A stretch of 64,000 nucleotides of DNA from an uncultured Chloroflexia bacterium (lineage in GTDB: Bacteria > Chloroflexota > Limnocylindria > Limnocylindrales > CSP1-4): contig CAVOJY010000003.1 of NCBI GenBank assembly GCA_963696405.1, positions 66,407 to 130,406 of the forward strand. The letters run 5' to 3'. Shown here piece by piece: positions 8,654-38,213 of this stretch. The position numbers and the translations under genes were made by a program. How positions within the stretch are numbered: position 1 is the first letter of the stretch; every line of letters starts with the position of its first letter. The notes below the pieces were generated by a model. That model worked only from the letters and a program-made list of their open reading frames with translations. It did not search any database and had not been told where the DNA came from.

Positions 8654-8841
8654 GGCACGATCCCCTTCGGGATGATTCCCAGGAGGACGAGCGCGAGAAG
8701 GAAGAGGCCGAGCAGCGTCGCCGCAAGGTCCTCGCTGATCCCGTAGCCCCGCGAGGCGTCGGGCTCGATTCCGGGTGTGGTACCGGTCTCCGTCTCCCCG
8801 GATGCGTCCGCTGGGGACCGTTCCATGTCGCCGCTGCTCAC
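8650..8841 (-). CDS. Small membrane protein (hypothetical)
   Basis: 63 aa with an acidic N-terminus and one TM helix (LAATLLGLFLLALVLLGII). GTGA overlaps with both neighbours suggest translational coupling. Confidence 0.4.
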   Translation of the reverse strand: MSSGDMERSPADASGETETGTTPGIEPDASRGYGISEDLAATLLGLFLLALVLLGIIPKGIVP

Positions 8842-12848: not shown

Positions 12849-12850
12849 CA

Positions 12851-14287: not shown

Positions 14288-14841
14288 CCCTCGCTCATTC
14301 CACTCGTCTTATCGTGCGATTCTCCGGTCCCCGGCACCACGGCGGACACCTTCAGGCCGATGCCCGGCACGATCGACCGCGTGATCCAGCAGACGTCCTC
14401 GGCCAGGTGCACCAGCCGCTCGAACTCCTCGGGCGCGGTGACCGCCAGTGTGCTGGCCGCACTCACCTCGATCAGCTCGTAGCGGCGTTCCGGGTAGTCG
14501 TGCACACCGCTGACGATCACCTCGAGGTCCGGGAGCTCGATGCGCCGCTTGCGCGCCGCCCATGCGACCGCCATGGCGAAGCAGGAGGCCACGCTGGCGA
14601 AGAGGTACTCGGACGGCATCGGAGCGCTGTCCGTGCCGCCGTCCTCGACCCGCTCGTCGGAGGTGAGCCGGAACCGACCCTGCCGGACACTCATCTCCAC
14701 CCGGAACCCGCCCAGCCAGGTTGCCTCAACGCGGCGGTGGCCGTGCGGGTGGAGGACGCCGGACGGTCTCCAGGGTCCCTTCGACCGGGCCGGCTCGTCG
14801 GGAACCGGCCCGGTCGGGATGGGCTCTACGCGGGATCCCAA
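14284..14841 (-). CDS. OsmC/Ohr family protein
   Basis: Two conserved Cys contexts (LFASVASCFAMAV and LAEDVCWITRS). Start uncertain; an in-frame TTG at 14841 is the nearest candidate that keeps the OsmC N-terminal strand. Confidence 0.65.
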   Translation of the reverse strand: MGSRVEPIPTGPVPDEPARSKGPWRPSGVLHPHGHRRVEATWLGGFRVEMSVRQGRFRLTSDERVEDGGTDSAPMPSEYLFASVASCFAMAVAWAARKRRIELPDLEVIVSGVHDYPERRYELIEVSAASTLAVTAPEEFERLVHLAEDVCWITRSIVPGIGLKVSAVVPGTGESHDKTSGMSEG

Positions 14842-15092
14842 TCCTGTCCTTTCCGGATGAGCATGATGCTCATGATCCTGGAGCGGAGCGGGACGGGAAC
14901 CATTCGGTACCCTGTCTTGAACCCCCAGCGGATGATGCGAACCCACCACTGGCGCTTCAGCGGCCTGACCGCGGACTCGGGGTACTTGCGGTACAGCTCC
15001 TCCTGGGCGACCTCGACGAGGGCGCGCTCGGAGAGCCTGCGGAACTTCTGGATGAAGGAGTAGGGAGTCTCTTCGCGAATCACCGCGGGCAT
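14826..15092 (-). CDS. Small conserved hypothetical protein (88 aa)
   Basis: Composition is non-shadow-like (K/Y/F/I/W rich: YSFIQKFRRLSERALVEVAQEELYRKYPE...WWVRIIRWGFKTGY). Lies directly downstream of the flavoprotein, mirroring the flavoprotein + small protein pair of MSMEG_0569/0570-type clusters (context inference only). Confidence 0.5.
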   Translation of the reverse strand: MPAVIREETPYSFIQKFRRLSERALVEVAQEELYRKYPESAVRPLKRQWWVRIIRWGFKTGYRMVPVPLRSRIMSIMLIRKGQDWDPA

Positions 15093-15102: not shown

Positions 15103-16443
15103 CTACCGCGGCGGGAGTTTCTTCAGCGCGTCCTTCGCCGCCAGGCAGATCGGCTCGTTCAGCGCGCCGATCGGCGGTGAGTAGACGTTCTCCATGGTCG
15201 CCAGCTCGTCCACGGTGGCGTGCTTGCGCATCGCGAAGGCGATGAAGTCGGAGCGCTCCTTGACCCCCTCGCCGCCGTAGAACTGGATGCCGAGCAGTTC
15301 CCGGGTCTTGGGGTCCACCAGCATCTTCACGTTCATCGGCTCGACGTTCGGGTGGTAGCGGGCGCAGGTGATGCCCTTCGCCTCGCCGATGATGTACGAC
15401 TTGCCCAGCGCCTTTGCGAGCGTCTCGGTGATGAGGACGCCGCCGATCTGGACGTGGCCCACCTCGAGCGACCAGGGAAAGTAGGCAGCCCGCGTGTGCA
15501 TGGCCCCGCCGGCCGCGTTGATGCCGGCCACGCGACCCTGCGGGTAGGCGTACGTCGAGGGAAGGATCGGCGCCGGGACTCCGGCGACCGCCTGCATCGA
15601 CTCCACCACGGCCCCCGCGGCGTACACGTCGGGCACGTTCGTCCGCATCATGTCGTCCACGATGAGCCCGTGCCCGCTGCCGAGCTTGCACCCGATCGAC
15701 TCCGCGAGCGCGGTGTTCGGCTTTTCGTCGGCCGCCATGAACGCCATCTGGCAGGGGATCTCGCCCTTGTCGGTGACGGCCGCGACGAGCTTGCCGTCCT
15801 TGCCCTTCAGCTCCTTGAGCTCGGTCGTGAACATGAACTTCACGCCCATGTGCTCGAGGCTGTCCTGGCCGATCTTCATGACGTCCGGGTCGGCGAACTC
15901 CGCCTGGAGCCACGGCTCGTCGTCGATGACGGTGACGTTCTTGCCGCGGTTCGCGAGGCCCGTGGCAAGCTCGAGCCCGACCGGCCGGCCCTTCCACACG
16001 ATGACGTCCTGGACGCTGTCCAGCTCCTTGTCGATCTCCTTGGCGCGCTCGATGTTCTTGACGAACTGGACCCCATCGAGCTCGACGCCCGGGATCTTCG
16101 GCAGGACGTAGGCCCACCCGGTGCCGATGACCAGCTTGTCGAACGGGAATTCCTGGCCACCCTGCGCCACCACCGTCTTGCGGTTCATGTCGATCGACTC
16201 AACCGTCGTCGAGAGCTGGAGGTTGATGCCGATCTCCTTGGTGTAGAACTCGGGACCCTGGAGAATCAGCTTATCCATGCTCTCGATCTCGCGACCGAAG
16301 ACGTACGGGATGCCGCATGGGCTGTACGCCGTGATCGCGAAATCCCCGATGAGCGTGACGTCGTGCGTTCGGTCGTACTGCTTTGCCTGCGTTGCGGCCG
16401 ACGTTCCGGCCGCGCCGGCGCCGATCACGACAATTCGAGCCAT
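15103..16443 (-). CDS. FAD-dependent pyridine nucleotide-disulfide oxidoreductase (NADH oxidase / CoA-disulfide reductase-like)
   Basis: MARIVVIGAGAAGTSAA dinucleotide fold, the single redox Cys context YSPCGIPY typical of the Nox/CoADR class, and a second GxGxxG (VWKGRPVGLELA). GAGGAGG SD upstream. Confidence 0.85.
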   Translation of the reverse strand: MARIVVIGAGAAGTSAATQAKQYDRTHDVTLIGDFAITAYSPCGIPYVFGREIESMDKLILQGPEFYTKEIGINLQLSTTVESIDMNRKTVVAQGGQEFPFDKLVIGTGWAYVLPKIPGVELDGVQFVKNIERAKEIDKELDSVQDVIVWKGRPVGLELATGLANRGKNVTVIDDEPWLQAEFADPDVMKIGQDSLEHMGVKFMFTTELKELKGKDGKLVAAVTDKGEIPCQMAFMAADEKPNTALAESIGCKLGSGHGLIVDDMMRTNVPDVYAAGAVVESMQAVAGVPAPILPSTYAYPQGRVAGINAAGGAMHTRAAYFPWSLEVGHVQIGGVLITETLAKALGKSYIIGEAKGITCARYHPNVEPMNVKMLVDPKTRELLGIQFYGGEGVKERSDFIAFAMRKHATVDELATMENVYSPPIGALNEPICLAAKDALKKLPPR

Positions 16444-16591: not shown

Positions 16592-17671
16592 CTATGCAGG
16601 CCTCGCGGCCTCCGCGTAGTCGGCGTGCCGCGCGTAGAGACCGGGCTCACCGCCCGTGTGGACGAACACGACGGTCGCGTCGCGGGCGATCTCGCCGCGA
16701 CGCACCAGGCCGACGAGCCCGGCCATCGCCTTCCCGGTGTAGACGGGATCCAGCACGAGGCCCTCTGTCTCCAGGGCCAGGCGGATCGCCGCGCCGCACT
16801 CTGTCGTGGGGGCCCCGTAGCCCCCGCCGATGTAGCCGTCCTCGAGGTGGACGTCGGCCGCGTCGATGGTCACCCCCAGGCGCAGGAGATCCGCGGTGCC
16901 CTGGGCGAGACCCAGGACACGCGGCGCCATGTCCGCGCGGCTCCGGCTCACCAGGATCCCCACGACCCGGTACGTCGCGTGGATCCAGGCTGCGCCCGCG
17001 AGCAGGCCCGCGTGGGTCCCGCCCGAGCCGTTGGCCACCACGAGGACCTCCGGCCGGGCGTCCTTCTCCGCGAGCTGCGCCTCGAGCTCGGCGCTTGCCT
17101 CCACGTACCCGGCGTCGCCCACCGGGGTCGCCGCCCCGCGCGCGAGGACGCACGGTCGCCGGCCGGCCCCGCGCAGCTCGGCGGCGAGGGCATCCGCGGC
17201 CGGCTCCACCGAGCCGCGGTCGGGATCCCCGGTGAAGACGAAGCGCGTGCCCACGAGCGACTCGAGGAGGAGGTTGCCGTCCCGTTCGGCCGGCGGGGAG
17301 CCGTAGAACACCGCGATCGGGTCGAGGCCGGCCGCGCGCGCCGCGATCATGGCCGTCCGGACGGCGTTCGACTGCGGCCCGCCCACGGCGATCAGCGTGT
17401 CGGCGCCCTGGGCCAGGGCCTCGCCGATCAGGAACTCGAGCTTGCGTACCTTGTTGCCTCCAGCCCCGAACCCGGTCAGGTCGTCGCGCTTGACCAGGAG
17501 CCGGTCCACGCCGATGGCACGGGCCAGGCACCGCGCGTCGTGGAGGGGCGTCGGCAGGTGCGCGAGCGGAAAGCGCGGCAGCGTGACCGGCAGCGCGCGC
17601 TGGACGGGGCGTTGCCGTCCCTCGGCGGCATGCGCCGCGATCGGCCGGTCGCCCGCAGACGGTTCGGTCAT
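16592..17671 (-). CDS. ACC deaminase / D-cysteine desulfhydrase family PLP-dependent enzyme
   Basis: LPTPLH...LLVKRDDLTGFGAGGNKVRKLEFLIGEA...AVGGPQSNAVR. Family-typical PLP-lysine motif (GGNKxRKLE). Confidence 0.85.
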   Translation of the reverse strand: MTEPSAGDRPIAAHAAEGRQRPVQRALPVTLPRFPLAHLPTPLHDARCLARAIGVDRLLVKRDDLTGFGAGGNKVRKLEFLIGEALAQGADTLIAVGGPQSNAVRTAMIAARAAGLDPIAVFYGSPPAERDGNLLLESLVGTRFVFTGDPDRGSVEPAADALAAELRGAGRRPCVLARGAATPVGDAGYVEASAELEAQLAEKDARPEVLVVANGSGGTHAGLLAGAAWIHATYRVVGILVSRSRADMAPRVLGLAQGTADLLRLGVTIDAADVHLEDGYIGGGYGAPTTECGAAIRLALETEGLVLDPVYTGKAMAGLVGLVRRGEIARDATVVFVHTGGEPGLYARHADYAEAARPA

Positions 17672-19008
17672 CCGCCGGTCACCCGGTCAACGAGCTGCTC
17701 GGCCAGCCCCGGCGCCGGTGCGGTGACGAGCCGGTCGACCTCGCCGGCCGGAAGGACGCCGCCGACGAGCGGATCCTCCACGAGGACGTCCCGCAGCGCC
17801 CGCCCGCTCTCGCGCGCCCGCACAGCGGCCGCGTGGACCCGCTCGTGGGCAGTCTGCTTGCCGATGAGCTGCGCGAGGGCGCCCATGACCGCCTCGGCTG
17901 CCACCTCCTGGTGCCTCGCGTCCAGGTTCCGTTTCATGGCGCCGGCATGGACCTCCAGCCCGTCGAGCAGGTCGCGCGCGAGGCCGAGCGCCGCGCCCGT
18001 GGCAACGCACGCGGACGGGATCGCCGCCCACTCGCTCTTCCAGCTGCGGCCGTCGCGCTCGTGGTCGCCGACGAGCGCCTCGAGCATGATGTCGGCGTCG
18101 CGGCGGACGATCCGGGCGAGCGTCCCCAGCTGTTCGCTGCGCTCGGGGTTCCGCTTCTGGGGCATGGTGATGCTGCCGACGTCCGCGCTTCTCGACGGTT
18201 CTGCCAGCTCGCCGATCTCCGGGCGCTGGAGGTTGTAGACCTCGTGACCGATCCGGTCGAGGGTGGCCGCCACCATCGCCAGCCAGACGACGAACTCGGC
18301 GAAACGGTCGCGCGAGACGGTCCAGCTGATGGCCGGAGCGGCGAGGCCCATGCGGTGCATGACCCGCTCCTGCAGCTCCAGACCGCGCGGTCCGTAGCCG
18401 GAGAGCGTCCCCACGCCGCCAGCGAGCTGCCCGACCGCGAGTCTCGGCCGCATCTGCCGGAGGCGCTCGCGGTGACGTCGGAGCTCGTCTGCCCACACGG
18501 CTGCCTTGTAGCCGAAAGTGATCGGCAGGCCGGGCTGGCCGTGTGTACGACCCACCATGGGAGTCGAGCGGTGCTCGCGGGCGAGGGCCACGGCGCGTTC
18601 CTCGATCGCCCCGAGATCACGCTCCGCGACGTCCGCGACCCGCAGGAGCGCGACCGCGAGCCACGTGTCGGTGATGTCCTGGACGGTCGCGCCGTAGCAG
18701 ACCCATTCGCCGGCGCCGCCGGCGCAGCGAGCCGCCATGGCTCGGATGAGGCCGAGGAGCGAGTGGCCGGTCGCCGCGTATCCGGCGCGGACCTCGTCGA
18801 GGTCGGCCGCCTCGCCGCGCATCACGCGCGCGATCTCGGCCGCGGCGTCGGCCGGGATGATTTCGAGGGCAGCCTCCTCCTCGGCCAGGACGGCCATGAC
18901 CTCGCACCAGCCGCGGGTGCGGCCCTCGTCCTCGAAGAGCGGCCGCAGCTCGTCGCTTCCCCAGGTGGGGCCGAAGATGTACGAGTCGACGGGGTGGACG
19001 GACGACAT
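17668..19008 (-). CDS. Class-II (aspartase/fumarase superfamily) lyase, adenylosuccinate lyase / 3-carboxymuconate cycloisomerase-like
   Basis: 446 aa with superfamily signature GSITMPQKRNPERSE. ATGA overlap with the downstream PLP enzyme. Confidence 0.85.
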   Translation of the reverse strand: MSSVHPVDSYIFGPTWGSDELRPLFEDEGRTRGWCEVMAVLAEEEAALEIIPADAAAEIARVMRGEAADLDEVRAGYAATGHSLLGLIRAMAARCAGGAGEWVCYGATVQDITDTWLAVALLRVADVAERDLGAIEERAVALAREHRSTPMVGRTHGQPGLPITFGYKAAVWADELRRHRERLRQMRPRLAVGQLAGGVGTLSGYGPRGLELQERVMHRMGLAAPAISWTVSRDRFAEFVVWLAMVAATLDRIGHEVYNLQRPEIGELAEPSRSADVGSITMPQKRNPERSEQLGTLARIVRRDADIMLEALVGDHERDGRSWKSEWAAIPSACVATGAALGLARDLLDGLEVHAGAMKRNLDARHQEVAAEAVMGALAQLIGKQTAHERVHAAAVRARESGRALRDVLVEDPLVGGVLPAGEVDRLVTAPAPGLAEQLVDRVTGG

Positions 19009-19038: not shown

Positions 19039-20595
19039 TCAGGTCTCGGTGTGCCGGGTGTCTTCGGCGGTTCCGGCGGTCCCCGCTCCGGCGATGGTGC
19101 GGGCCCGTGCCAGGAGCGCCTCCTCAGCGTGGCCGATCGCCGAGGTCCGGGTGTCGATCCAGCGCTGCTGCCGGCGGAGGTCCCGACGGCGGTCGGCGAC
19201 CATCGCGCGGACGGCCGCCGGCGCGGCGCCGCCGATGCCGGTCCGGCGGGCCACGGCCAGCTCCGGGTCCAGCGCCTCGCGGATGGCCGCGTCGTCCAGG
19301 CCGGCCGGTTCCCCGGCCACCTCGATCGCCGCCGCGTCGAGAGCGGCCGCGTCGATCCCGTCGATCTCGTTCCCCGCCTCGAGCGCCACCCGCACCGCCT
19401 GGGCCACCACCTTGTGGGCCGTCCCGAAGGGCATGACACCGCGGAGCATGATCTCCTCCGCCAGGTCGTTGCCCGCGAGGTAGCCCCGCGCAGCCGCCGC
19501 GGCCAGCTTCGCGCGGTCGAAGATGATGCCGCTCATGACCTCCGTCAGCAGCGCCGTGCCCTGCTCGGCCAGCTCGAGCGAATCGGGCACCTCGTCCTGG
19601 GCGTAGATCCGCGGGTCGGGCTGACCCGTCGCGGTCTTCGCCACCGCCGCCGCGCCCGCAAGGCGGCCGACAAGGCGCGCGGCAGCGCCGCGAACGAACA
19701 CGAGCGCGTAGGGGTTCTTCTTCTGGGGCATGGCCAGGCTGATCCGGCTCGTCCGGTCCGCGAGCTCGACGAAGCCGAACTCGCGGGTGTCCCAGGTGAG
19801 GAGGTCCTCGGCCAGCCGGTCGAGGGTCAGGCCCACGCTGGCCGCGAGCGCCGTCAGCTCGACCGCCAGGTCGGCCTGCCAGTTCGCGTCCCGGGCATGG
19901 ACGACCACCCCGTCGAACCCGAGCTGCCGGGCCAGCAGCTCGCGGTCCAGGACGATGGTGGCGCCGTTCGTGCAGCCCGCCCCCGCGGGACTCAGGTTTG
20001 CCCGGCCCCATGCCGACTGCAGCCGCTCGGCGTCCCGGGCGAGCGGGTAGACGTAGGCGAGCAGGGCGTGCGCCAGGCTCGACGGCTGCGCCGCCTGCCA
20101 GTACGTGTAGTCGACCGACAGCGTGGTGACGTGCCTGGCCGCGAGATCGACGAGCGCGCGCTGGAGCCGCTCCAGCCCCACCGCAAGGGCGAGGAGCCGG
20201 CGCCGCACGGCCAGGTGGTAGGCGACCACCGACGCCTCCCGCCGCGGCCGGCCCACGAGGAGGTACCCGGCATCCGGCCCGATCTGCCGGCGCAGCCATG
20301 CTTCACGGTTCATCACGAGATCGCCGCACGCGGGGTCGGCGAGGCCGCTCCCCGGATCCACCCCCGCCCCGTAAGGCTGGATCGAGCTGACGACCGCGTC
20401 GCGCAGCTCGAGGATGGCGCCCACCAGGCGCCGGCCCGGCTTGGGTGGGATGTACCCGCTCTCGATGAGCAGAAGCGTGTTGGCGAGATCGGCGAGCGCC
20501 AGCTCGGGCATCAGCGCAGGCGCCGCCAGGAGTTCGAGCCGGTACGCCGAGCGAACGAGCTCGGGCGAGGGACCCTCCATGAGCCGCCCGGTCAT
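19039..20595 (-). CDS. Argininosuccinate-lyase-like class-II lyase (paralog, not the housekeeping argH)
   Basis: Signature SLAMPQKKNPYAL. I take the start at ATG 20595, which overlaps the ComA stop (ATGA), not the longer ORF start at 20652. Confidence 0.8.
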   Translation of the reverse strand: MTGRLMEGPSPELVRSAYRLELLAAPALMPELALADLANTLLLIESGYIPPKPGRRLVGAILELRDAVVSSIQPYGAGVDPGSGLADPACGDLVMNREAWLRRQIGPDAGYLLVGRPRREASVVAYHLAVRRRLLALAVGLERLQRALVDLAARHVTTLSVDYTYWQAAQPSSLAHALLAYVYPLARDAERLQSAWGRANLSPAGAGCTNGATIVLDRELLARQLGFDGVVVHARDANWQADLAVELTALAASVGLTLDRLAEDLLTWDTREFGFVELADRTSRISLAMPQKKNPYALVFVRGAAARLVGRLAGAAAVAKTATGQPDPRIYAQDEVPDSLELAEQGTALLTEVMSGIIFDRAKLAAAAARGYLAGNDLAEEIMLRGVMPFGTAHKVVAQAVRVALEAGNEIDGIDAAALDAAAIEVAGEPAGLDDAAIREALDPELAVARRTGIGGAAPAAVRAMVADRRRDLRRQQRWIDTRTSAIGHAEEALLARARTIAGAGTAGTAEDTRHTET

Positions 20596-21462
20596 GGCGT
20601 GCCCGCGCCGCGCGGGGCGCCGTGCGGCGCTCCCGCGGGGATGTTCGCCCACTCGCCGCCCCGCCCCTCCAGTGCCGCGTGGAGCGTCTCGAAGCGGAGC
20701 CCGCGCCGGAGCGCCTCCACCGCCAGGATGTCGGCCGTGGGGATGTTCGCCAGGTTGACGTTCGGCCCGAACCGGAGGATGAGGTAGGACTGCTGGTCCT
20801 GGATGGGCGCCTCCCAGAGGATGCGCAACGGGTCGGCCACCGGCCCCACCAGGGCGTCGACCTTGCTCTCGACCACGTGGCCGGACGCATCGAACACGCC
20901 GGTGCCACGCCCGGACTCCCGGGCCTCGATGGTCACGAAGTCCGCCCCGAGCTCAAGGTCGACGAGGAGACGTTCGGCCATCTCTTCTGGTGACGGCTGG
21001 CGCTCGGGGTCCTTGCGTCCCACCTCCGTCACCACGTGCAGGCCGGCGTCCTGGGCCCGGCGGATCGCCTCGGCCCGGGCCTCGGCGGGCATGTCGATGG
21101 TGCCGTCGCTCACCTCGACCCCGGTGAAGCCAAGCTCACGGGCACGCGAGACGAACGCCGCGAGCCGCCCGGACGCCCAGGCCCCCTCGAGCAGCGTTCC
21201 ACCCGGGTAGACGAGCATCCCCGCGTCGACGAGGCGGGCGATCTTGCGGCGGAGAACCTCCAGCGCCGACCGTCGCCGTCGTGCCGAACCCGAACTTCAC
21301 GTGGTCGATCACCTGGCCCGCCATCTCCACGAGGTCGTCGGTGGCGTGGAGCCCGAGCCCCTTGTCGATGACCGCGGTGATCCCCGCGCGGCGGGGCTTG
21401 GCGGTGCGCGGGCCCAGGTAACAGTGGATCGCGTCGCCCCAGGCCGTCTCGTGGTCAGTCAT
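20592..21462 (-). pseudogene. comA: Phosphosulfolactate synthase (ComA family), split by a 1-nt frameshift (or a sequencing error)
   Basis: The N-terminal part (ORF 21136..21462) runs ...KPRRAGITAVIDKGLGLHATDDLVEMAGQVIDHVKFGFGT. The C-terminal part (ORF 20592..21218) runs MLVYPGGTLLEGA...GFTGVEVSDGTI...EVGRK. My retranslation shows the second frame already reads SALEVLRRKIARLVDAG upstream of the M, so the shift lies at about 21258-21285. Confidence 0.75.
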
Positions 21463-21520: not shown

Positions 21521-22390
21521 TCACGCCGGCCCTACCAGTTCCTTCAGGCCTTCCTCGACTTCTTCGAGGGTCGCGCCCCAGGGCACCGTGACCACGTTGC
21601 CGTCGCGCTGGATCCCCCGTTCGAGGAGGCAGCACTTCAGGAGCGTAAGCGTGTCACGGTGACCGGTGAGCCGCCGGGGGCAGATGTCCGCCGCCGGCGG
21701 TCGGTCCCCGTAGTGGTGCTCGTGGATCTGCAGGCTGCGCTCGCAGCCGACGAGCGTCCAGTCGGCGCGCGCGGGTCGCTCGTCGAGGAAGTGGACCGGC
21801 GCCCCCATGTCCTCGAAACCGGACGACCGGCAGGGGAAGAGGTACCCGTCCGGCTGCGGTTGGACACCGGCCGCGAGATCGCGCAGGTCGATCCGCTCGA
21901 GGCGCGGGACCATGGCCCCGATCGGGGCGACGGCGAGCACCCGCTGCACCTGGTCCCAGAGCTTCGGCGGCTCCGGTGGAGCCGCCTCGACGATGGTCAC
22001 CTCGAACGGCTCCGGATGGGCGATGAAGTTGACGTGCTCGTACCGCCCGACCACGACGAGCGCCTCGTCGGGTCCGAGCCCCAGCTCCAGCGCCTTCGCG
22101 AGCATGGCCGACGGGATCCCCGTGTCAACGTCATGGTCGGTGACCGACCGCGTCAGAGCGGGCGGGGAGAGCCACTCGGCGCGGATGATCGGCGAGAACA
22201 GCGGGACGCGGCTCTGCTTCTCGACCTCGGCCACGGCAATCCCCGGCCCGGCAGGCTCACGGTAGACGATGTAGTCGGTGTGCCGGTACGCCTCGCGCCC
22301 GACGATCGTGCGCAGGCCGTCGTCGGTGAGGGGGAAGTCGGCGGTCTGGTAGCTCACCCTCCGGTAGGGGAGGGGCACGAGGTTGCGCAT
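21521..22390 (-). CDS. Conserved hypothetical protein
   Basis: Start taken at MRNLVPLPYRR (ATG 22390, 16 nt after the upstream stop). Protein-like composition with several Cys (FPCRSSGF, LVGCERS, ICPRRL, LLKCCLLERG). No family recognised. Confidence 0.55.
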   Translation of the reverse strand: MRNLVPLPYRRVSYQTADFPLTDDGLRTIVGREAYRHTDYIVYREPAGPGIAVAEVEKQSRVPLFSPIIRAEWLSPPALTRSVTDHDVDTGIPSAMLAKALELGLGPDEALVVVGRYEHVNFIAHPEPFEVTIVEAAPPEPPKLWDQVQRVLAVAPIGAMVPRLERIDLRDLAAGVQPQPDGYLFPCRSSGFEDMGAPVHFLDERPARADWTLVGCERSLQIHEHHYGDRPPAADICPRRLTGHRDTLTLLKCCLLERGIQRDGNVVTVPWGATLEEVEEGLKELVGPA

Positions 22391-22406
22391 CGGTTCTCCG
22401 TCCTGC

Positions 22407-23276
22407 TCAGGCCGCGGCCGCGGGATCGGCTGCGCCCGGCCCGGCGGCGTTGGCGATCGTTCTGCGGGAGAGCAGGGCCCGCCCGCCGAGGACGACACCG
22501 GTCAGCATATCCCCGCCGGACGTTTCTCCGACGGCGAGCAGCGGTGCGATGTCGGGCGGACCGGCGGTCTCGCGGCGCAGCAGGGCTCCCAGCAGGCGGG
22601 CAAGCGGCGCGAAGACGTGGCCGCGCGCTGCCGCGTCGACCATCTGGGCGGCGAAGCGGGTGGTGCGAGGCATCGCGGCGTCCCGGAGCGCCGCCCGGAG
22701 CGCGCGGCCGTCTGCGAGGACCCCGGCGTGATCGCCCCATGCGCTGAAGGCGAGCGCCCCGGCCAGGAGGTCGTCTCCGGAGGGCGTGAGCCCGGGTCCG
22801 AGGCCGGCGAGCCGCTGCGCCGCCGCGGCTGCGGCGGCCGGGTCCCCGGAGGACAGGGCTTGCGTCAACGCCTGGAGGTCCCCGTCGCGCGCGACCGCGT
22901 GGATCCCGCGCGCACCCGCGCCGGCGCGCCGCGCGATGTCTGCGAGCTGTCGCAGCCGGCGCTCGACCTCGTCGGGCTCCGCGGCATCAGTGGCATCGAT
23001 CAGCGCGGGTCGCCAGGTGACGGCACCCCGCTCGTCCACGTCCGGCACGCCGTCCAGGGACCGGAGATCGCGGGGCGCCTCGGGACCGAGCCGCGCCGTG
23101 AAGGGTCCGTCGGCAAGGTCGTGTCGCACGAGCGACAGGAGCGCACCGTCAACCCCGGAGGCGAGGATGACGGCACGCTCGAAGCGAGCGTGGACAGACC
23201 AACCTTGAGAAGTTGTGAGCGGGGATCGGAGCAGCCGGGCCGCCTCCTCGTCCGCGCTGATGACGCGAAGCCTCAC
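22407..23276 (-). CDS. DUF2877 domain protein (YlbF/AllH-like)
   Basis: Motifs GLGPGLTPSGDDLLAGAL and LAVGETSGGDMLTGVVLG are typical of DUF2877. GTG start at 23276 is preceded by GGAGG with an 8-nt spacer. Confidence 0.7.
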   Translation of the reverse strand: MRLRVISADEEAARLLRSPLTTSQGWSVHARFERAVILASGVDGALLSLVRHDLADGPFTARLGPEAPRDLRSLDGVPDVDERGAVTWRPALIDATDAAEPDEVERRLRQLADIARRAGAGARGIHAVARDGDLQALTQALSSGDPAAAAAAAQRLAGLGPGLTPSGDDLLAGALAFSAWGDHAGVLADGRALRAALRDAAMPRTTRFAAQMVDAAARGHVFAPLARLLGALLRRETAGPPDIAPLLAVGETSGGDMLTGVVLGGRALLSRRTIANAAGPGAADPAAAA

Positions 23277-23331
23277 CGGTGGGGCCTCCGGCCGAGTGCG
23301 GGGTGAATCGCCGCGATGATAGCATCGGGCC

Positions 23332-24384
23332 GTGCCCGAACTGCCTTCCGGCCACGTTCTGCCCCCCCTGGCCGAGCTTGTCTCGCACCTGCGCGCGGCG
23401 CCGGCGTGGCAGCGGAAGCGCGACCTGGAGCTGCTGGGACAGGGGTTCGCCGCGACGCCTGGCACGCTTGACCGAGCCGTCCTCCGCAGTTTCGGGGAGG
23501 CGACACCCGTGGGTGCTCTGCCCCTGCCCGACGATATCGGGGACGACGCGGCTGCCATCGCGGAGGGCGACGGCTACCTGCTCCTCGCTGCCGAGGTGAT
23601 GTGGCCGCCCATGGTGGAGGCGGCGCCGGAGCTGGCGGGCGTGAATGCCGTGCTCGCGAACGTCAACGACATCTACGCGATGGGCGGGCGCCCCATCGCC
23701 CTCCTCGACACGGTCCTCGTCCCCGCGCTGGCGGATGCCACGGCGATCCTCGCGGGGATCGCCGCCGGCGCCGCACGCTACGGGATCCCGGTGGCCGGCG
23801 GCCACCTGACCGTCGGCGCCGCCTCGACCTCGCTCGCCGCCTTCATCGTGGGGCGTGCGAGCCGCCTGTTGTCGGGCAGCGCGGCCGCGCCCGGTGACGC
23901 GCTCCTGCTCCTCACCACCACCACCGGCCGCTTCCGGGATCCCTTCCCCTTCTGGGAGTGCTCGTTCGACCGGAGCGATGCGGAGCTCCGCGACGACCTC
24001 GACCTGCTGCCGCAGCTCGCGGAGGCGGGCCTCTGCGGAGCGGCGCGCGACGTGTCGATGCCGGGCGTCGTGGGCTCCGCTCTGCAGTTCCTCGAGGGCT
24101 CGCGCGTCGGAGCCGAGATTGACATCGGCGCGCTCCCGTTCCCCACGGAGGTGCGTGGACAGGAGCTGACCTGGCTCCTGTCGTTTCCGAGCTATGCGTT
24201 TCTGCTGGCTGCCGATGAAGCGAGCGTGGGCGAGATCTCCGCGCGCGCGGCGGCTCGCGGCCGCGCATGCCCCCGGATCGGCCGGGTGACCGCCGACCGC
24301 CGGGTCCACCTGCAGCTCGCGGGTGATCGCGCTCTCCTCTGGGATTTCGACCGCGAGCCGTTCACCGGCATCACCCGCCCGTAG
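23332..24384 (+). CDS. AIR-synthase-related (PurM/ThiL superfamily) protein, Sll0787 / MSMEG_0567 C-terminal-domain-like
   Basis: DDIGDDAAAI...LLAAEVMW...NVNDIYAMGGRPIALLD...GIPVAGGHLT. These are PurM-superfamily ATP-binding motifs. Neighbours are Nit1C-type genes. Confidence 0.8.
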   Translation: MPELPSGHVLPPLAELVSHLRAAPAWQRKRDLELLGQGFAATPGTLDRAVLRSFGEATPVGALPLPDDIGDDAAAIAEGDGYLLLAAEVMWPPMVEAAPELAGVNAVLANVNDIYAMGGRPIALLDTVLVPALADATAILAGIAAGAARYGIPVAGGHLTVGAASTSLAAFIVGRASRLLSGSAAAPGDALLLLTTTTGRFRDPFPFWECSFDRSDAELRDDLDLLPQLAEAGLCGAARDVSMPGVVGSALQFLEGSRVGAEIDIGALPFPTEVRGQELTWLLSFPSYAFLLAADEASVGEISARAAARGRACPRIGRVTADRRVHLQLAGDRALLWDFDREPFTGITRP

Positions 24385-24423
24385 CGCAGCAGGTCGGCTG
24401 TCGCACGCGGTCGGACGCCTCCG

Positions 24424-25149
24424 TCAGCCGTTTGCTGAGTGCTCCACAGGGGGCGGGCCGCCCGCGGCTGCAGCCTCGGCGATTCCCTCCGGCTCCTCGC
24501 TCCACCCCGGCCGCATGAGCTGGTGCGGCGTGCCGGCGTACTCGACCTCCTGGCCGATCCGCACCCAGCCGATGTGCTCGAACAGCTTGGCGTAGCGGCA
24601 CTGGATGTAGGCGAGGAACGTCTTCGCGCCGGTCGACCGCACGTGCTCCTCTGCCGCGCGCACGAGGGCCGGGGCAACCTTCAGCTTCGATGCCCGGAAC
24701 GCCTGGGATACGACCAGCCGGCCCCCGAACCACACGCCGTCCTCGCGCGCATAGCAGCGGACCGCACCGGCCACCTCGCCGGTCGGCTCGCAGATCGCCA
24801 CGAGGTGCATCGTCCGCGGGTCGCGGTCGTGGTCGTCGATGTCGCTCCCATCGAAGAGCCCCTGGTGGCGGACGAATGACGCCTCGCGGATGGCGTAGTG
24901 GGCGTCGAGTTCCTCGACGGTGGCGGCGATGCGGCAGACGAGCGAGCGCTCACTGCGAGGGCCGGCCACCACGGTGATCGATGAGGATGCGGCAGAGTGG
25001 CCGACTGTCCCGTCGCGGCCGACCGTCCCGTCACGGTTGTCTGTCGTCACTGCGATCCTTGCCTCCGCGATGGCCGTGGCCAGCTCGGTCGCGGGCGTGC
25101 GTTCCGTTGCCGGGTCCAAGAGGCAGGCAAGCATACAGGGGCCCGGCAC
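24424..25149 (-). CDS. GNAT N-acetyltransferase, MSMEG_0567/Sll0786 N-terminal-domain-like
   Basis: AHYAIREASFVRHQGLFDGSDIDDHD...HLVA...GAVRCY...WFGGRLVVSQAFR. GNAT core in a Nit1C-type context. Start uncertain; the N-terminal ~60 aa of the longest ORF may not be translated. Confidence 0.7.
   Translation of the reverse strand: MPGPCMLACLLDPATERTPATELATAIAEARIAVTTDNRDGTVGRDGTVGHSAASSSITVVAGPRSERSLVCRIAATVEELDAHYAIREASFVRHQGLFDGSDIDDHDRDPRTMHLVAICEPTGEVAGAVRCYAREDGVWFGGRLVVSQAFRASKLKVAPALVRAAEEHVRSTGAKTFLAYIQCRYAKLFEHIGWVRIGQEVEYAGTPHQLMRPGWSEEPEGIAEAAAAGGPPPVEHSANG
25002..25037 (-). repeat. Imperfect 2 x 18-bp tandem repeat (encodes RDGTVG RDGTVG if translated)
   Basis: ccgactgtcccgtcgcgg / ccgaccgtcccgtcacgg, two mismatches. 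Lies in the uncertain 5' part of the GNAT ORF. Confidence 0.8.
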
Positions 25150-25224
25150 CTTGCGGGCCGGGCCCCTGTTCTGGCTACGGTCCCGCTACCGCGGTCAGAC
25201 CGCGGCGCAGGCCTTGCCGGTCGA

Positions 25225-25794
25225 TCAGGACATGATCAGCCAGGTCGACCCTGTCGCGATCCGCAGGGCCGGGAGCAGGAACGTCCAGATGGACGTGAAG
25301 ATAAGGATCCAGCCCAGCCACTTCGCGTTGAACCTGCCATACACGGTCAGCCAGATCGCGCCGAAGGCGACGGTCCACACGAGCATGACGGACTGGAGCC
25401 AGAGATCCTTGTCGAACGCGGCGAAGCCGATGAACGGCAACGACCAGACGGCGATGACGATGCAGATGTTGGCGATCGGCTTCAGGTCGAGGCCGAACCA
25501 GGCGGTGAGCCCCAGCGCGGTGAAGAACACGGCGTACGCGGTCGCCAGCCCGGCGAGCGCGATCGCGGGGCCGCCCACGACGAACGACAGGTACGCGCAG
25601 GTCGCGAACGTCGCGAGACCAGCGATGAGGCTGATCACGCCGACCGTCTTGACCGGGTGGGCGCCGCCCTCGGCGGGCTCCGAGCCGAAGCCGGCAAAGA
25701 ACATGCCGTTCGCGAACGCGGCCAACCCGAGCGCGACGAATGCCATCGTCAGGGGCAGTGCGCCCTCAGCCGGCAAGAACGTCCAGATTGTCAC
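25225..25794 (-). CDS. Six-TM small membrane protein, AmiS/UreI-like (amide/urea channel family) candidate
   Basis: 189 aa, about 6 predicted TM helices, W/F/G-rich. Size and C-terminal pattern (WLTVYGRFNAKWLGWILIFTSIWTFLLPAL) resemble UreI/AmiS. Assignment is by resemblance only. Confidence 0.45.
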   Translation of the reverse strand: MTIWTFLPAEGALPLTMAFVALGLAAFANGMFFAGFGSEPAEGGAHPVKTVGVISLIAGLATFATCAYLSFVVGGPAIALAGLATAYAVFFTALGLTAWFGLDLKPIANICIVIAVWSLPFIGFAAFDKDLWLQSVMLVWTVAFGAIWLTVYGRFNAKWLGWILIFTSIWTFLLPALRIATGSTWLIMS

Positions 25795-25918
25795 GATGAT
25801 CCTCCCTCAGTAGGCCAATTCGGACGTCTCGCCGGGTTCGCCGGGCGGTCCCGCCGCCGGACGGGCCCTCCGCGGTTTCCGGCCAGATCGTCCTCCACTC
25901 CTCCAGTTGTTGCGAGGG

Positions 25919-27031
25919 CTACGCCGACCGCTCCCTCGCGAATGCCGGCAGAGCGCTGCAGGCTCCACACCGCACGCAGCCGGCCAACGTGTCGGTGTGA
26001 CGCACCCCTCGCCGCGCGAGCATCTCCTCCACCGCGCGGTAGATGCGGTCCATCACCTCGGGATCGGGCGCGGGTACATCCTCCATCTCCGTGCCCACGA
26101 TCGGGCGCAGCGGGACGACGAAGGGGTAGACGCCGATGTCCACGAGGCGCTGGCAACCCTCGATGATGGACTCGGGGCTTTCTCCGAGCCCCACGAGGAC
26201 GTAACTGCTGACCTGGTTCTTCCCGAAGATCTCGACGGCCTTGGCGAACGTCCGGAAGTACTGGTCGACGCTGACGCGGGCCTTCCCGGGGGTGATTCGC
26301 TCCCGGATGGCCTGGTCGAACGACTCGATGTGGATGCCGATGGAGTCGGCACCCGCCTCCCGGACCTCCCGCAGTACCTCGAGGTCGCTCGGGGGTTCGA
26401 ACTGGACCTCGATCGGCAGGTCGACAGCCGCCTTCACGGCACGTACGCAGCGAGCCATGTAGAGGGCGCCCTTGTCGGTCTCGTTGATGGTCCCCATGGT
26501 CATGGTGAAGTGCTTCACGCCGTCCAGGCGGACGGCCGCCTCAGCCACCTCGGCGAGGTGCTGCGGCTTCTTCACCGCGATCGTGTTCTGGTTGCCCAGG
26601 CTGATGCCGATGCCGCAGTACTTGCAGCGATCGGCTGGATCGTTCCAGCGGATGCACGTCTGAACGACGGTGGTCGCCAGGACGTCCGTTGCATGCAGCG
26701 TGGCGATGTGCCAGTAGGGCACGCCGTCCGCCGTGGTGAGGTCGTAGTAGCGCGGCCGTGCCGCGAACGACACGGGCGCGACCGGTGTCCCGTGGCGGGT
26801 GATGACGTAGCCGCCATCCGCCACGCGGACGGCAAACGGCGACGCTTCCACGAATTCGGCCATCGTGGGTACCGAGAACGGGACGCCTTCCAGGACGAAC
26901 GCCTTCGCGTCGGCCGGGCCGGCGCCGCCCCGGCGCCCCTGGCTTTCGGTGGGAACCTCGAGCCGGGCACCCTTCGACTGGAGCTCCACTACGAGCTCCT
27001 CGTAGTCGTGCTGGTTGCCCTGGTAGGCCAA
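25919..27031 (-). CDS. Radical SAM-like protein, MSMEG_0568/Sll0785 family candidate
   Basis: 370 aa, TIM-barrel-like pattern with Cys cluster C-x9-C-x2-C (CIRWNDPADRCKYC) and C-terminal CVRCGAC. Sits between Sll0783-like and GNAT genes, as in Nit1C clusters. Confidence 0.7.
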   Translation of the reverse strand: MAYQGNQHDYEELVVELQSKGARLEVPTESQGRRGGAGPADAKAFVLEGVPFSVPTMAEFVEASPFAVRVADGGYVITRHGTPVAPVSFAARPRYYDLTTADGVPYWHIATLHATDVLATTVVQTCIRWNDPADRCKYCGIGISLGNQNTIAVKKPQHLAEVAEAAVRLDGVKHFTMTMGTINETDKGALYMARCVRAVKAAVDLPIEVQFEPPSDLEVLREVREAGADSIGIHIESFDQAIRERITPGKARVSVDQYFRTFAKAVEIFGKNQVSSYVLVGLGESPESIIEGCQRLVDIGVYPFVVPLRPIVGTEMEDVPAPDPEVMDRIYRAVEEMLARRGVRHTDTLAGCVRCGACSALPAFARERSA

Positions 27032-27149
27032 TCGGCTACCTCGGTCGAAGTCCTTGTGTCGTCGCCGAATCGTTGCGGGCGACCGTCCGCCGGACGGCCG
27101 CCCGCGGATCAGCCTGCCGAGCAGGCCCTCGAGGTCGTCTGGATCGTCG

Positions 27150-27638
27150 TCAGACGGTCCAAGTGGTGAGGATGAGGGCGCCGTGCCGCCACTTCTCGAT
27201 CGTGAGGTCGAGAAGATCGAGCGGGTTCATCGGCTTGATGCCCGGGATCATGTCCTCTTCGCGGTGACCGTAGAGCATGCCCATCGCGAATCGGCACGCA
27301 TAGATCGGCGTGCCTTCCTTCATGATGGTCATGAGCTGGCGGTTCATCGCGAGGGCTCCGGGGAACCCTTCCTGGCCGACAGCCGGCCAGCCGCGAGACC
27401 CCGACCCGAGCAGGACGCCCGGCCCGAAGAGGGACATCGCGGTCTCGAAGCCCTTCCTCTTGAGGCGCGTCGTGGTGAGCATGTTGATGAGCGCCACCGA
27501 ACCCTCGTAGGGGACGGTGTGGATCGCCACGTAGGCATGCTCGCCAGGGTTCGCCTTGTAGTCGGGGAACAGCTTCTCCTCGATGTTGTAGAGGATCTGC
27601 CCTTCCTGCGGGATCGGGATCGTCACTCGATCAGCCAT
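27150..27638 (-). CDS. MSMEG_0572/Sll0783-family (nitrogen-starvation response) protein candidate
   Basis: 162 aa. Size and position (immediately upstream of the radical SAM gene) match the first gene of Nit1C/Sll0783 clusters. GGAGGAG SD. Sequence identity to the family not verified. Confidence 0.55.
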   Translation of the reverse strand: MADRVTIPIPQEGQILYNIEEKLFPDYKANPGEHAYVAIHTVPYEGSVALINMLTTTRLKRKGFETAMSLFGPGVLLGSGSRGWPAVGQEGFPGALAMNRQLMTIMKEGTPIYACRFAMGMLYGHREEDMIPGIKPMNPLDLLDLTIEKWRHGALILTTWTV

Positions 27639-27780
27639 TGAGTGCTCTCCTCCAGTTCATGGTGGACTGGTCTGGTGTTTGCAGGGCCTCCTCGCGAGGG
27701 TCACGAGTCCGGCGGTTCCCATGGCACCCGCGGATTGGACCTGCGGAGCAGCGCAGACTACTACGCCCGGACGCGGATTG

Positions 27781-28671
27781 CTACTTCTTGTCGCGCCCGC
27801 AGCTGTCGTAGAGATCGACGGCGTTCTGGTAGAAGATGCGGTCCTTCAGCTCGTCGCTGATGTCGGCACCCTCGATGCGGTAGTACTCCGCCCAGAAGTC
27901 GCTCCACGGGGTGTCGGACGCGAAGAGCATCCGATCCCACGCCTTGCCGGACTCCTGGAGCCGGCTGAGCATCATGCGCGGCCCGAAGCCGACGCTCCAG
28001 GTCATGTCGCCGTAGATCTTGTAGCCCTGGTCGACATAGTCGAGGAACTTTGGGATCCACTTGAGGTGGCCGGACGTGCCGCCGCCCATGTGGACGACGT
28101 AGATCCGGATGCGCTTCCCGTAGGCCTGGATGAACTCCATGAGGTTGGAGATATCAGACCCGCCGGCGGGGCTGGTGTGCATGTGGAAGACGAGGTTGTT
28201 CGCCTCCACGGTGTCGACCAGCTCTTCCCACATCTTCTTGGTGTCCTCGTCCCACTCGGACACCTTGTAGGTGCCGCCCAGCAGGCAGGTGATCTTGAGG
28301 GCCTTGACGCCCTTGTCACCGGCATGCTTGACGGCCTCGCGGTTCTGGTCCCACATCTTGAGGAGCGGAGACGTCCAGATCGCTCCCACGAAGCGGTCGT
28401 CGTGCTCGCACGCGTCGACGACCACGGGATTCAACCCGAAGGGCTGCTCAGGCACCGGCTGACCGTAGTCAGAGATGACCATCTGGCGCTCGACGCCGAT
28501 ATGGTCCATGTGCTTGAGCATGTCCTTGTAGGTCGGGTAGTGGATGACGGTTGGGTCGATCTCGATCGGCGACCCATAGTACTTCCAAGGCGCCATAGAC
28601 CCGATGTGGCTATGGGCATCGAAGCACCGGCGCGTCACCCGAAGAGTGCTCTCGTACGCCATTTTCAGCAC
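27781..28671 (-). CDS. Amidohydrolase-2 (TIM-barrel metal-dependent hydrolase) family protein
   Basis: CFDAHSHIG near the N-terminus (HxH metal motif), VFHMHT, VVHMGGG and FASDTPW. This is the pattern of PF04909-type amidohydrolases/decarboxylases. Confidence 0.8.
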   Translation of the reverse strand: MLKMAYESTLRVTRRCFDAHSHIGSMAPWKYYGSPIEIDPTVIHYPTYKDMLKHMDHIGVERQMVISDYGQPVPEQPFGLNPVVVDACEHDDRFVGAIWTSPLLKMWDQNREAVKHAGDKGVKALKITCLLGGTYKVSEWDEDTKKMWEELVDTVEANNLVFHMHTSPAGGSDISNLMEFIQAYGKRIRIYVVHMGGGTSGHLKWIPKFLDYVDQGYKIYGDMTWSVGFGPRMMLSRLQESGKAWDRMLFASDTPWSDFWAEYYRIEGADISDELKDRIFYQNAVDLYDSCGRDKK

Positions 28672-35373: not shown

Positions 35374-35676
<303 letters not shown>

Positions 35677-38208: not shown

Positions 38209-38213
38209 CGGCC

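Follow-up and report, generated by a model that had tools for sequence, protein, structure and literature searches.

We are confident that the six genes at positions 23332-28671 of a 64,000-nucleotide stretch of DNA from an uncultured Chloroflexia bacterium of the Limnocylindrales (assembly GCA_963696405.1, contig CAVOJY010000003.1; the whole stretch is called the window below) are one arm of a conserved island of 22 genes and about 22 kb (window 6377-28671), a 'type-B' Nit1C-like cluster in which another enzyme has replaced the nitrilase in its slot and which includes complete xcbABCDE and AllFGH/carbamate kinase (CK) sets. The canonical Nit1C cluster (Synechocystis sll0783-0787; Mycobacterium smegmatis MSMEG_0565-0572, 'gpr'; Pseudomonas nitBCDEFGH), with which the island shares five families at the level of hidden Markov models (HMMs), is induced by nitrogen starvation and required for cyanide assimilation, and has also been linked to polyhydroxybutyrate (PHB) accumulation and peroxide resistance. 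An earlier note on this DNA had described the six genes as a nitrilase-free variant of that cluster and the adjoining gene array as a mere neighbour, but synteny across relatives places the array in the same conserved unit. Missed by that note were a predicted complete bacterial pathway for coenzyme M (CoM) and a set resembling oxamate transcarbamylase (AllFGH) and its CK.

Synteny of the island

From its high-coordinate end, the island in the window consists of the genes for an amidohydrolase, an Sll0783-family protein, a radical S-adenosylmethionine (SAM) enzyme, a protein with six transmembrane helices (6-TM protein) and a GNAT acetyltransferase, followed by the inverted gene for an AIR-synthase-like (AIRS-like) enzyme and then by those for AllH, XcbA, ComA/XcbB, an XcbC-like protein, XcbD, an XcbE-like protein, a flavoprotein, an 88-aa protein, OsmC, AllG, a conserved protein that goes by no name, FmdB, FdrA, a GT4 glycosyltransferase (GT), YeiH and CK (Table 1). 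The sixteen array genes from allH onward all lie on the minus strand and are tightly packed, with gaps of -92 to 195 bp.

The nearest relatives of the radical SAM protein are metagenomic (92, 87 and 78% identity), and the next tier, at 70%, belongs to Chloroflexota/Limnocylindrales. The order from the amidohydrolase through the flavoprotein is repeated, with 53-87% protein identity, on Logan/JGI contigs and on one metagenome contig of 376 kb, and the contig of a Limnocylindrales metagenome-assembled genome (MAG) has the window order from Sll0783 onward and ends before the amidohydrolase. One related locus (L002; loci are given by their L numbers) is rearranged with its gene set kept, the radical SAM gene having moved away from the others. 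In a MAG labelled Deltaproteobacteria (58% tier), the same gene set minus the 6-TM and YeiH genes is nearly all co-directional, in the order CK, FmdB, Amidohydro_2, Sll0783, radical SAM, GNAT, AIRS, flavoprotein, small protein, OsmC, AllG, 232-aa protein, FdrA, FmdB, GT and AllH, with divergent xcbA-E alongside, and in a contig of the 64% tier the gene set is present with xcb not within range. The cultured actinomycete Planosporangium flavigriseum (L103) carries comA-xcbA-D-E-C-allG-allH-osmC-regulator-flavoprotein-small protein-Sll0783, then the beta, alpha and accessory genes of a nitrile hydratase (NHase), and continues with GT/FdrA/CK, the radical SAM gene and GNAT. The gene set is thus shared by Chloroflexota, soil metagenomes, the Deltaproteobacteria-labelled MAG and a cultured actinomycete. 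Since the block from allH to the flavoprotein gene follows the core in the same order in the Chloroflexota-tier contigs, and the rest recurs reshuffled in that MAG and the actinomycete, the functional unit is about 22 kb and not 5.3 kb.

As judged from the sequences, the conserved core comprises five genes, those for the Sll0783 protein, the radical SAM enzyme, the GNAT, the PurM-superfamily (AIRS-like) enzyme and the GT4, and the nitrilase and MSMEG_0569/0570 of the canonical cluster are replaced by four modules: the amidohydrolase; AllFGH with CK; the flavoprotein with the 88-aa protein and OsmC; and xcbABCDE. A channel of the AmiS/UreI type (the 6-TM protein, see below) and YeiH are additions of the window's lineage only.

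The AIRS-like gene is the sole plus-strand gene of the island. It is separate from the GNAT gene and convergent with it across a 39-bp gap, as the earlier note had it, and in 32 of 41 type-B loci its orientation is opposite to that of the radical SAM gene. On its other side, just 14-100 bp separate its start from that of the divergent allH (window 23276-23377; L001 13660-13675; L003 6086-6110), and from the conservation of the inversion it follows that the promoters must lie within or very near coding sequence.

Census of related loci and the slot enzyme

We assembled 102 related loci from metagenome contigs, exact-protein look-ups and a genome-contig scan, and typed them by tblastn with references that had been verified by NCBIfam. 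The metagenome part comprises the best 80 of at least 572 matches to the window radical SAM protein, and the genome-contig scan, run with exact 8-mer patterns of the radical SAM protein, contributed 14 loci, all of them at most 50% identical.

Beside the Sll0783 and radical SAM genes, the slot holds a window-type amidohydrolase in 35 of the 102 loci, a cobalt-type nitrile hydratase (VCTLCSC motif) in 8 and a Nit6803-type nitrilase in 5, and no locus (0/102) has two of these enzyme types. Directly upstream of the radical SAM gene we found Amidohydro_2 in 17 loci and the nitrilase in 5. The replacement that the earlier note had seen in the window is real, but it is not a local oddity, the amidohydrolase and the nitrilase never occurring together. 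In Nonomuraea lactucae (L006, 4877-6440), an uncultured Actinomycetota MAG (L008, 3582-5286) and P. flavigriseum (L103, 10575-12225), the cobalt-type NHase genes (beta, alpha with VCTLCSC, accessory) come directly after Sll0783, and a Nocardia aurea contig (L010) has the same NHase genes and ends before Sll0783. A cobalt-type NHase in the slot of sister loci is more informative on the chemistry than the plain absence of a nitrilase.

What accompanies the slot enzyme could be followed in 45 loci, those whose flanks reach 8 kb or more. Among those with Amidohydro_2, AllFGH/CK is present in 13/15 and xcb in 10/15; the corresponding figures are 7/7 and 3/7 for NHase loci, and 0/2 and 0/2 for nitrilase loci. 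A CK orthologue is present in 40 of the 102 loci, and only the closest relatives of the window have the gene for the UreI-like channel (8/102).

Genes of the core arm

All six open reading frames (ORFs) of the core arm that the earlier note had listed are present, and HMM scoring put the MSMEG_0572, MSMEG_0568, MSMEG_0567-type GNAT and MSMEG_0565 families above their cut-offs (Table 1). The core families are known and have curated models, and standard annotation would name them. For the AIRS-like member of this hallmark set, the earlier assignment stands as a best match, to TIGR04049 (AIR_rel_sll0787), but the score of 314.5 bits is about 7 under the cut-off of 321.3. TIGR04050 gave 125 bits (cut-off 312), and the next-best NCBIfam model was methanogenesis marker 2 (177 bits), with ThiL, SelD and PurL also among the matches.

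The amidohydrolase gene is the first of the minus-strand core run, at the head of the operon as claimed before, and occupies the slot of the nitrilase or nitrile hydratase. Residues D18, H20, H22, K126, H165, H194 and D253 are invariant among 21 orthologues, and the subfamily is very small (25 representatives at E<=1e-30 among 1.84 billion). A sequence search of the PDB, for which the protein alone and a profile of 21 members served as queries, returned no close solved structure: the last strand region alone aligns, to LigW-type decarboxylases (best E=7.8e-4), so that no functional transfer is possible.

Several lines of evidence support a DsrE/TusD-like sulfur-carrier fold with a conserved cysteine as the predicted structure of the Sll0783 protein. 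The top 12 PDB fold matches of its AlphaFold2 model (pLDDT, the predicted local distance difference test, 84) are all DsrE/YchN/TusBCD proteins, PF02635 (DsrE) is found on many of its homologues, and Cys115, invariant in 35 sequences, may be equivalent to the active-site cysteine of DsrE, an assignment made without superposition. The authors of the M. smegmatis 'gpr' study (PMC6039565) make a remark that fits a DsrE-like nature of the Sll0783 family.

The radical SAM enzyme, of the MSMEG_0568 type, has weaker NCBIfam matches to LipS2, LipA, HmdB, PylB and BioB, and combines a C-x9-C-x2-C motif (C126, C136 and C139, invariant) with a C-terminal CxxCxxC (C352, C355 and C358, conserved at 90% or more). 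The TIGR04045 match of the GNAT covers residues 71-213, its homologues have 164-186 aa, and its true start is probably near 24970.

The 6-TM protein itself has no Pfam or NCBIfam match, AmiS_UreI (PF02293) giving none at E<=1. Two of its 30 close homologues, 69-73% identical to it, do match AmiS_UreI, with E down to 3.4e-9, and its AlphaFold model (pLDDT 90.2) has six helices and finds the Helicobacter pylori urea channel UreI (6nsj/3ux4, TM-score 0.62-0.71) as best fold match in the PDB, followed by the acetate channel SatP. These data support the earlier proposal of an inserted AmiS/UreI-like protein, which we take as a predicted channel and a lineage-limited accessory.

Table 1. Genes of the type-B island in the window, with the evidence for each assignment (scores in bits).
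Feature	Coordinates	Strand	Evidence
Amidohydro_2 metal-dependent amidohydrolase	27781..28671	-	Pfam PF04909, 65.5
Sll0783/MSMEG_0572-family protein	27150..27638	-	TIGR04044, 202.1 vs cut-off 109.85
MSMEG_0568-family variant radical SAM enzyme	25919..27031	-	TIGR04043, 479.9 vs cut-off 303.7
Predicted six-helix AmiS/UreI-like channel protein, 189 aa	25225..25794	-	Pfam matches of homologues; fold
MSMEG_0567/Sll0786-type GNAT acetyltransferase	24424..25149	-	TIGR04045, 98.5 vs cut-off 68.45
sll0787-type AIR-synthase-like (PurM-superfamily) ATP enzyme	23332..24384	+	TIGR04049; Pfam AIRS + AIRS_C
AllH (DUF2877) homologue, first gene of long array	22407..23558	-	Pfam PF11392, 72.6
XcbA-family protein	21521..22498	-	NF052538, 343.1 vs cut-off 150; Pfam DUF7714, 252.7
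Phosphosulfolactate synthase ComA/XcbB, frame broken	20592..21462	-	Pfam ComA on both halves, 189.6 + 55.2
XcbC-like aspartase/fumarase-family enzyme (phosphate elimination from phosphosulfolactate)	19039..20652	-	NF052535; Pfam Lyase_1 + ASL_C2
XcbD, 3-sulfopropionylcysteine synthase	17668..19008	-	NF052536, 629.9 vs cut-off 600
XcbE-like pyridoxal-phosphate (PLP) enzyme	16592..17671	-	NF052537; Pfam PALP
Single-cysteine pyridine-nucleotide disulfide oxidoreductase (flavoprotein)	15103..16443	-	Pfam Pyr_redox_2, 169.5
Conserved 88-aa protein	14826..15092	-	Always after flavoprotein
OsmC-family peroxiredoxin-like protein	14284..14949	-	Pfam OsmC, 54.7, residues 105-200
AllG (DUF1116) homologue	12851..14287	-	Pfam PF06545, 228.4
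Conserved protein between allG and fdrA (~230-270 aa)	12040..12849	-	tblastn homology
FmdB-family zinc-ribbon protein	11656..12036	-	TIGR02605, 56 vs cut-off 31.3; Pfam Zn_ribbon_8
FdrA/AllF homologue	10091..11659	-	NF004760, 466.3 vs cut-off 433; Pfam Ligase_CoA
MSMEG_0565-family GT4 glycosyltransferase	8838..10046	-	TIGR04047, 387.4 vs cut-off 259.85
YeiH-family membrane protein, accessory (putative sulfate/sulfonate-type exporter)	7535..8653	-	Pfam PF03601, 154.3
Carbamate kinase, last array gene	6377..7339	-	NF009007, 271 vs cut-off 266

Genes of the array

XcbA-E make CoM from phosphoenolpyruvate (PEP), sulfite and cysteine in Xanthobacter, where XcbA, a [2Fe-2S] sulfoethanethioaldehyde reductase, carries out the final step (PMC9457059). 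The XcbC-like protein of the window has NF052535 (CoM_syn_XcbC) as its best NCBIfam match, at 462.8 bits below the cut-off of 575, and the XcbE-like protein likewise has NF052537 (CoM_syn_XcbE), at 333.6 bits below the cut-off of 450. The frame of comA/xcbB, the gene for the first CoM step, is broken by a single-base indel near 21258 (context GGAGGTT): with the L001 orthologue as tblastn query, residues 1-69 and 70-265 align in adjacent frames and none is lost. The break reflects an error of assembly or else an inactivation of very recent date. Another radical SAM gene, unrelated to the first and located at 29873-30918 on the minus strand, is also split, into two ORFs that overlap by 4 nt (30541-30918, with the motif CSYSCVYC, and 29873-30544, the remainder), and the splits of both genes may be assembly errors. 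This second radical SAM gene is followed by that of a NifX/NifB-like protein with a Nitro_FeMo-Co domain (30951-31583).

The window holds, on the plus strand at 47514-54070 and about 20 kb from the CoM biosynthesis cluster, redox genes of the sulfur/heterodisulfide type in a Qmo/Hdr-like arrangement: an MvhD/FlpD-like gene, two for HdrA-like flavo-iron-sulfur proteins and one for an Fe-S/NarI-like membrane protein, followed by hemerythrin and a canonical DsrE (PF02635, 1e-14).

Homologues have 269-280 aa in the case of AllH and 131-147 aa in that of OsmC, and the true starts of the two genes are probably near 23276 and 14733, respectively; the window has another OsmC-family gene at a great distance from the island (61880-62365, minus strand). 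The CK scores 354.1 bits against the arcC model TIGR00746 (cut-off 358.25). For the conserved gene at 12040-12849, tblastn with the 232-aa gene of L021 gave E=5.8e-16 (12112-12720), and Pfam and NCBIfam gave no match; a gene holds the same position in L021, L022, L024, L025, L031 and L032. The adjacent FmdB gene has a homologue in L021, L024 and L025.

The earlier note had drawn attention to a pair of genes for a flavoprotein and a small protein at 14826-16443. The pair exists, but it is not the MSMEG_0569/0570 family pair of the canonical cluster: the flavoprotein has no match to the MSMEG_0569 model TIGR04046 and the 88-aa protein none to the MSMEG_0570 model TIGR04042, and genuine MSMEG_0569 and MSMEG_0570 proteins from L019 and L102 find nothing in the window. 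The best PDB relatives of the flavoprotein are CoA-disulfide reductases (CoADRs; 3cgb, 5l1n and 4fx9, 1e-52 to 1e-49), its single cysteine, Cys43, sits in a YSPC43GIPY motif, and its orthologues in type-B loci are 43-78% identical; by these matches it is placed nearest to the class of CoA-disulfide reductases, persulfide reductases and NADH oxidases. The 88-aa protein, whose C-terminal half is hydrophobic and basic, has no Pfam or NCBIfam match. In L021, the gene that comes after that of the flavoprotein codes for a homologue of 100 aa (E=1.6e-10), and the gene is also in L022, L024, L025, L028, L031, L032 and L103.

The glycosyltransferase at 8838-10046 belongs to the type of the Nit1C family, as noted before; its next-best models are MshA (114 bits) and BshA (61 bits), with a weak match to the selenosugar synthase SenB. 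The YeiH gene is also found beside the core in L002.

Genes looked for and flanking loci

In a six-frame tblastn of the window, a verified TIGR04048 query (549 bits) for the Nit6803-family nitrilase gave chance matches (best E=0.5-2.8), and no scanned ORF of the window has a CN_hydrolase domain, in line with the nitrilase-free window described earlier. The window likewise has no homologue of NHase alpha or beta, of MSMEG_0569 or of MSMEG_0570, and neither an alkene monooxygenase nor a MetE-like epoxyalkane:CoM transferase was found in it. No allantoin-pathway domains were noticed among the scanned window ORFs, no search having been aimed at allantoin genes. Rfam gave no riboswitch or other RNA (whole window at the gathering threshold, island at E<=1). 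In a scan of 22800-29300 for promoters and terminators, nothing promoter-like turned up and terminator-like sites were as frequent as expected by chance, a result that is uninformative for a high-GC organism; the G+C content of the window is about 70%.

At the amidohydrolase end of the island, we rejected the methyltransferase gene at 28721-29710 as an island member, since it is not conserved in related loci. Just past the CK end, a minus-strand group at 1475-5755 (CYTH+CHAD protein, polyphosphate kinase, DUF971/GBBH-like_N protein) probably belongs to unrelated polyphosphate metabolism. A probable bacterial microcompartment (BMC) locus, like those for sugar-phosphate utilisation, lies on the plus strand at 33128-38498, with RpiB, a DeoC-type aldolase, a weak BMC-domain protein (34689-35327), EutN/CcmL vertex proteins (35749-36036 and 38214-38498) and an aldehyde dehydrogenase (36095-37579). 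Further along the plus strand, a 709-aa ORF (44335-46464) reads as a fusion in which an argininosuccinate-lyase-like part (Lyase_1 + ASL_C2) precedes a SAM-methyltransferase domain. The remainder of the arginine operon, argG-argR-argB-argJ-argC, is at 55991-61225.

Discussion

The type-B island resembles canonical Nit1C also in that a hydrolase gene adjoins the Sll0783 and radical SAM genes, but it is without the Nit6803 nitrilase, the flavin monooxygenase-like protein MSMEG_0569 and MSMEG_0570, and adds Amidohydro_2, the CoADR-class flavoprotein with its 88-aa partner, OsmC, AllFGH, CK, xcbABCDE, the UreI-like channel and YeiH; in the window the AIRS gene is moreover inverted and the GT gene lies 14 kb from the core. 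All five families of xcbABCDE from Xanthobacter autotrophicus Py2 (PMC9457059) are present and contiguous, XcbA and XcbD above their cut-offs, XcbC and XcbE as best matches below theirs and ComA by Pfam, in a context that is not alkene/epoxide metabolism. Homologues of all four Escherichia coli proteins AllFGH (oxamic transcarbamylase) and AllK, which phosphorolyse a carbamoyl group and yield ATP (PMC11326118), are encoded in the window, but by dispersed genes and not by one operon, with a further conserved gene and the FmdB zinc ribbon between allG and fdrA; no allantoin or ureidoglycolate genes were noticed nearby (no targeted search was made), and the substrate is presumably not oxalurate. 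With the AmiS/UreI channels (Pseudomonas aeruginosa AmiS, H. pylori UreI) the 6-TM protein shares the six-helix bundle and the clustering of its gene with an amide/nitrile-type hydrolase, but it is only about 17% identical to UreI, and no urease or aliphatic amidase gene is adjacent.

We tentatively favour, with somewhat more doubt than belief, an explanation that joins this architecture to a catabolic mechanism. The island would be a nitrogen-scavenging pathway for a small cyano, amide or carbamoyl compound, which would enter via the UreI-like pore and which the slot enzyme would convert, by hydration or hydrolysis, into an intermediate that bears a carbamoyl group; AllFGH would move the carbamoyl group onto phosphate, and CK would turn the carbamoyl phosphate into ATP, NH3 and CO2. 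CoM would provide the small substrate with a thiol carrier or handle, the part it plays for epoxides, and would be recycled by the flavoprotein, and the Sll0783/radical SAM/AIRS/GNAT/GT core would perform a sulfur-dependent step common to canonical Nit1C, its otherwise unexplained enzymes perhaps pointing to sulfur-transfer chemistry shared by all Nit1C types. The catabolic carbamoyl-phosphate mechanism, taken by itself, seems doubtful to us. What speaks for it is that AllFGH and arcC-type kinases are catabolic where studied, that the canonical cluster is under GlnR and NtcA and needed for cyanide assimilation, and that the channel added in this lineage is predicted to be of the urea/amide kind. 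The usual direction of arcC-type carbamate kinases is catabolic. NHase and Amidohydro_2, unlike nitrilase, are accompanied by AllFGH/CK, possibly because a nitrilase frees NH3 directly, whereas the product of a hydratase still has a carbamoyl or amide group in need of processing.

Several points weigh against the catabolic explanation. The census is biased toward relatives of the window radical SAM protein, and only 2 long nitrilase-type loci are among those sampled. Of the 45 long-flank loci (8 kb or more), just 23 have xcb, and its absence from about half of them indicates that CoM may not be obligatory; missing flank accounts for some of these absences, xcb of L103 lying just past where L006 and L009 end. 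In the window itself comA is frameshifted. The sister-locus enzyme scores as a nitrile hydratase (311 bits) and not as a thiocyanate hydrolase (204 bits, below the cut-off), and carbon-bound nitriles, once hydrated, give carboxamides, which cannot be phosphorolysed to carbamoyl phosphate, so that the model needs a hypothetical compound with an S-, N- or O-linked cyano or carbamoyl group, or an acylurea. Characterised Amidohydro_2 relatives are mostly decarboxylases, lactonases and hydratases, not amidases, and the PurM-superfamily enzyme, the GT4 and the GNAT look more biosynthetic than catabolic.

In an alternative that we consider unlikely, the island would make and use a sulfur-containing protective metabolite, for instance a thio-glycoside or a low-molecular-weight thiol. 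A glycoside would be assembled by the GT4, the GNAT in the role of MshD and the amidohydrolase in that of a deacetylase; its sulfur would come from the DsrE-like, LipA/BioB-like radical SAM and SelD/ThiL-like AIRS enzymes, with CoM as a building block or co-thiol, and the CoADR-like flavoprotein and OsmC would use the product against peroxides. The matches reported above are consistent with several of these parts: MshA, BshA and, weakly, SenB for the GT4; SelD and ThiL for the AIRS-like protein; the DsrE fold with its invariant cysteine for Sll0783; the kinship to lipoyl and biotin synthases together with the C-terminal CxxCxxC for the radical SAM enzyme; the CoADR/persulfide reductase class for the flavoprotein; and OsmC, which is conserved in the cluster. 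The canonical cluster of M. smegmatis, for its part, gives peroxide resistance and raises NADPH/NADP (PMC6039565). However, the mycothiol deacetylase is of the LmbE type and not Amidohydro_2, the cluster has no cysteine ligase, and a protective metabolite leaves CK and AllFGH, the interchangeable slot, the UreI-like channel and the nitrogen-starvation control of the canonical cluster unexplained.

The same genes can also be read in the opposite direction, as a biosynthetic cyanation of the kind by which HypF/HypE produce the CN ligand of [NiFe] hydrogenase: CK would make carbamoyl phosphate, AllFGH would carbamoylate a thiol (CoM or a protein cysteine), and the AIRS-like enzyme would dehydrate the S-carbamoyl group with ATP to a thiocyanate or nitrile that is passed to a product or cofactor, the slot hydrolase salvaging or detoxifying stray nitrile. 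HypE is a member of the PurM superfamily that dehydrates S-carbamoyl cysteine, with carbamoyl phosphate as the source, and the cluster has a carbamoyl-phosphate enzyme, a carbamoyltransferase, an AIRS-like enzyme, a thiol pathway and nitrile-hydrolysing enzymes, as well as a radical SAM enzyme with weak similarity to the cofactor-maturation enzyme HmdB. Carbamoyl phosphate, a PurM-superfamily ATP enzyme and a thiol are what the two systems share, by analogy only, but the window has no HypF homologue and no hydrogenase genes, its carbamoyltransferase is of the AllFGH type, and its AIRS-like protein is without the C-terminal cysteine of HypE. Canonical Nit1C, moreover, has the AIRS-like enzyme without AllFGH/CK, a nitrogen-containing product would be counter-intuitive under nitrogen starvation, it would be futile for one cluster to build a group and then hydrolyse it, and arcC-type kinases and AllFGH are catabolic wherever studied (PMC11326118), all of which makes cyanation highly unlikely. 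Nor do we give much credit to a Nit1C variant of five to six genes with its nitrilase swapped, beside which the CoM/AllFGH array would be an unrelated neighbour devoted, for example, to alkene/epoxide metabolism or purine breakdown. The inverted AIRS gene does separate the two arms, for which no fewer than three promoters are required, L002 has its radical SAM gene apart from the other genes, and some long loci are without xcb. But the linkage is kept across Actinomycetota, Chloroflexota and the Deltaproteobacteria-labelled MAG despite extensive reshuffling, genes of core families (GT4 MSMEG_0565, AIRS) are interleaved with the array, and the scans of the window turned up neither an alkene monooxygenase nor a MetE-like epoxyalkane:CoM transferase, with no upstream allantoin genes noticed (again without a targeted search). 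Synteny has largely refuted this reading, which we regard as extremely improbable.

For twenty years Nit1C has been an enigmatic conserved cluster. Our literature search, which was of incomplete coverage, returned no description of the nitrilase-free class, of its NHase or amidohydrolase alternatives, or of a coupling to xcbABCDE and AllFGH/CK. The sister class described here is physically tied to known chemistry, namely CoM synthesis, carbamoyl transfer to phosphate and CK, and thereby constrains what the core can be doing; Planosporangium flavigriseum, Asanoa hainanensis, Nonomuraea lactucae and Nocardia aurea are cultured carriers of related clusters. To our knowledge, CoM has so far been found only in methanogens and anaerobic methanotrophic (ANME) archaea and in alkene- or epoxide-oxidising bacteria. 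It is improbable, in our estimate, that CoM plays a third physiological role here, as the thiol carrier of a Nit1C-type pathway in soil Actinomycetota, Chloroflexota and other bacteria that would capture a small compound with a cyano or carbamoyl group (candidates are cyanate, cyanamide, cyanide on a disulfide and an unsaturated nitrile), hydrate it via the amidohydrolase or NHase, and recover nitrogen and ATP through carbamoyl phosphate; if it were true, the whole Nit1C family would stand for thiol- and sulfur-dependent handling of compounds with a C-N triple bond. The loci themselves suggest that the bacterial CoM pathway is common in soil bacteria without alkene metabolism, which would change the picture of how this cofactor is used.

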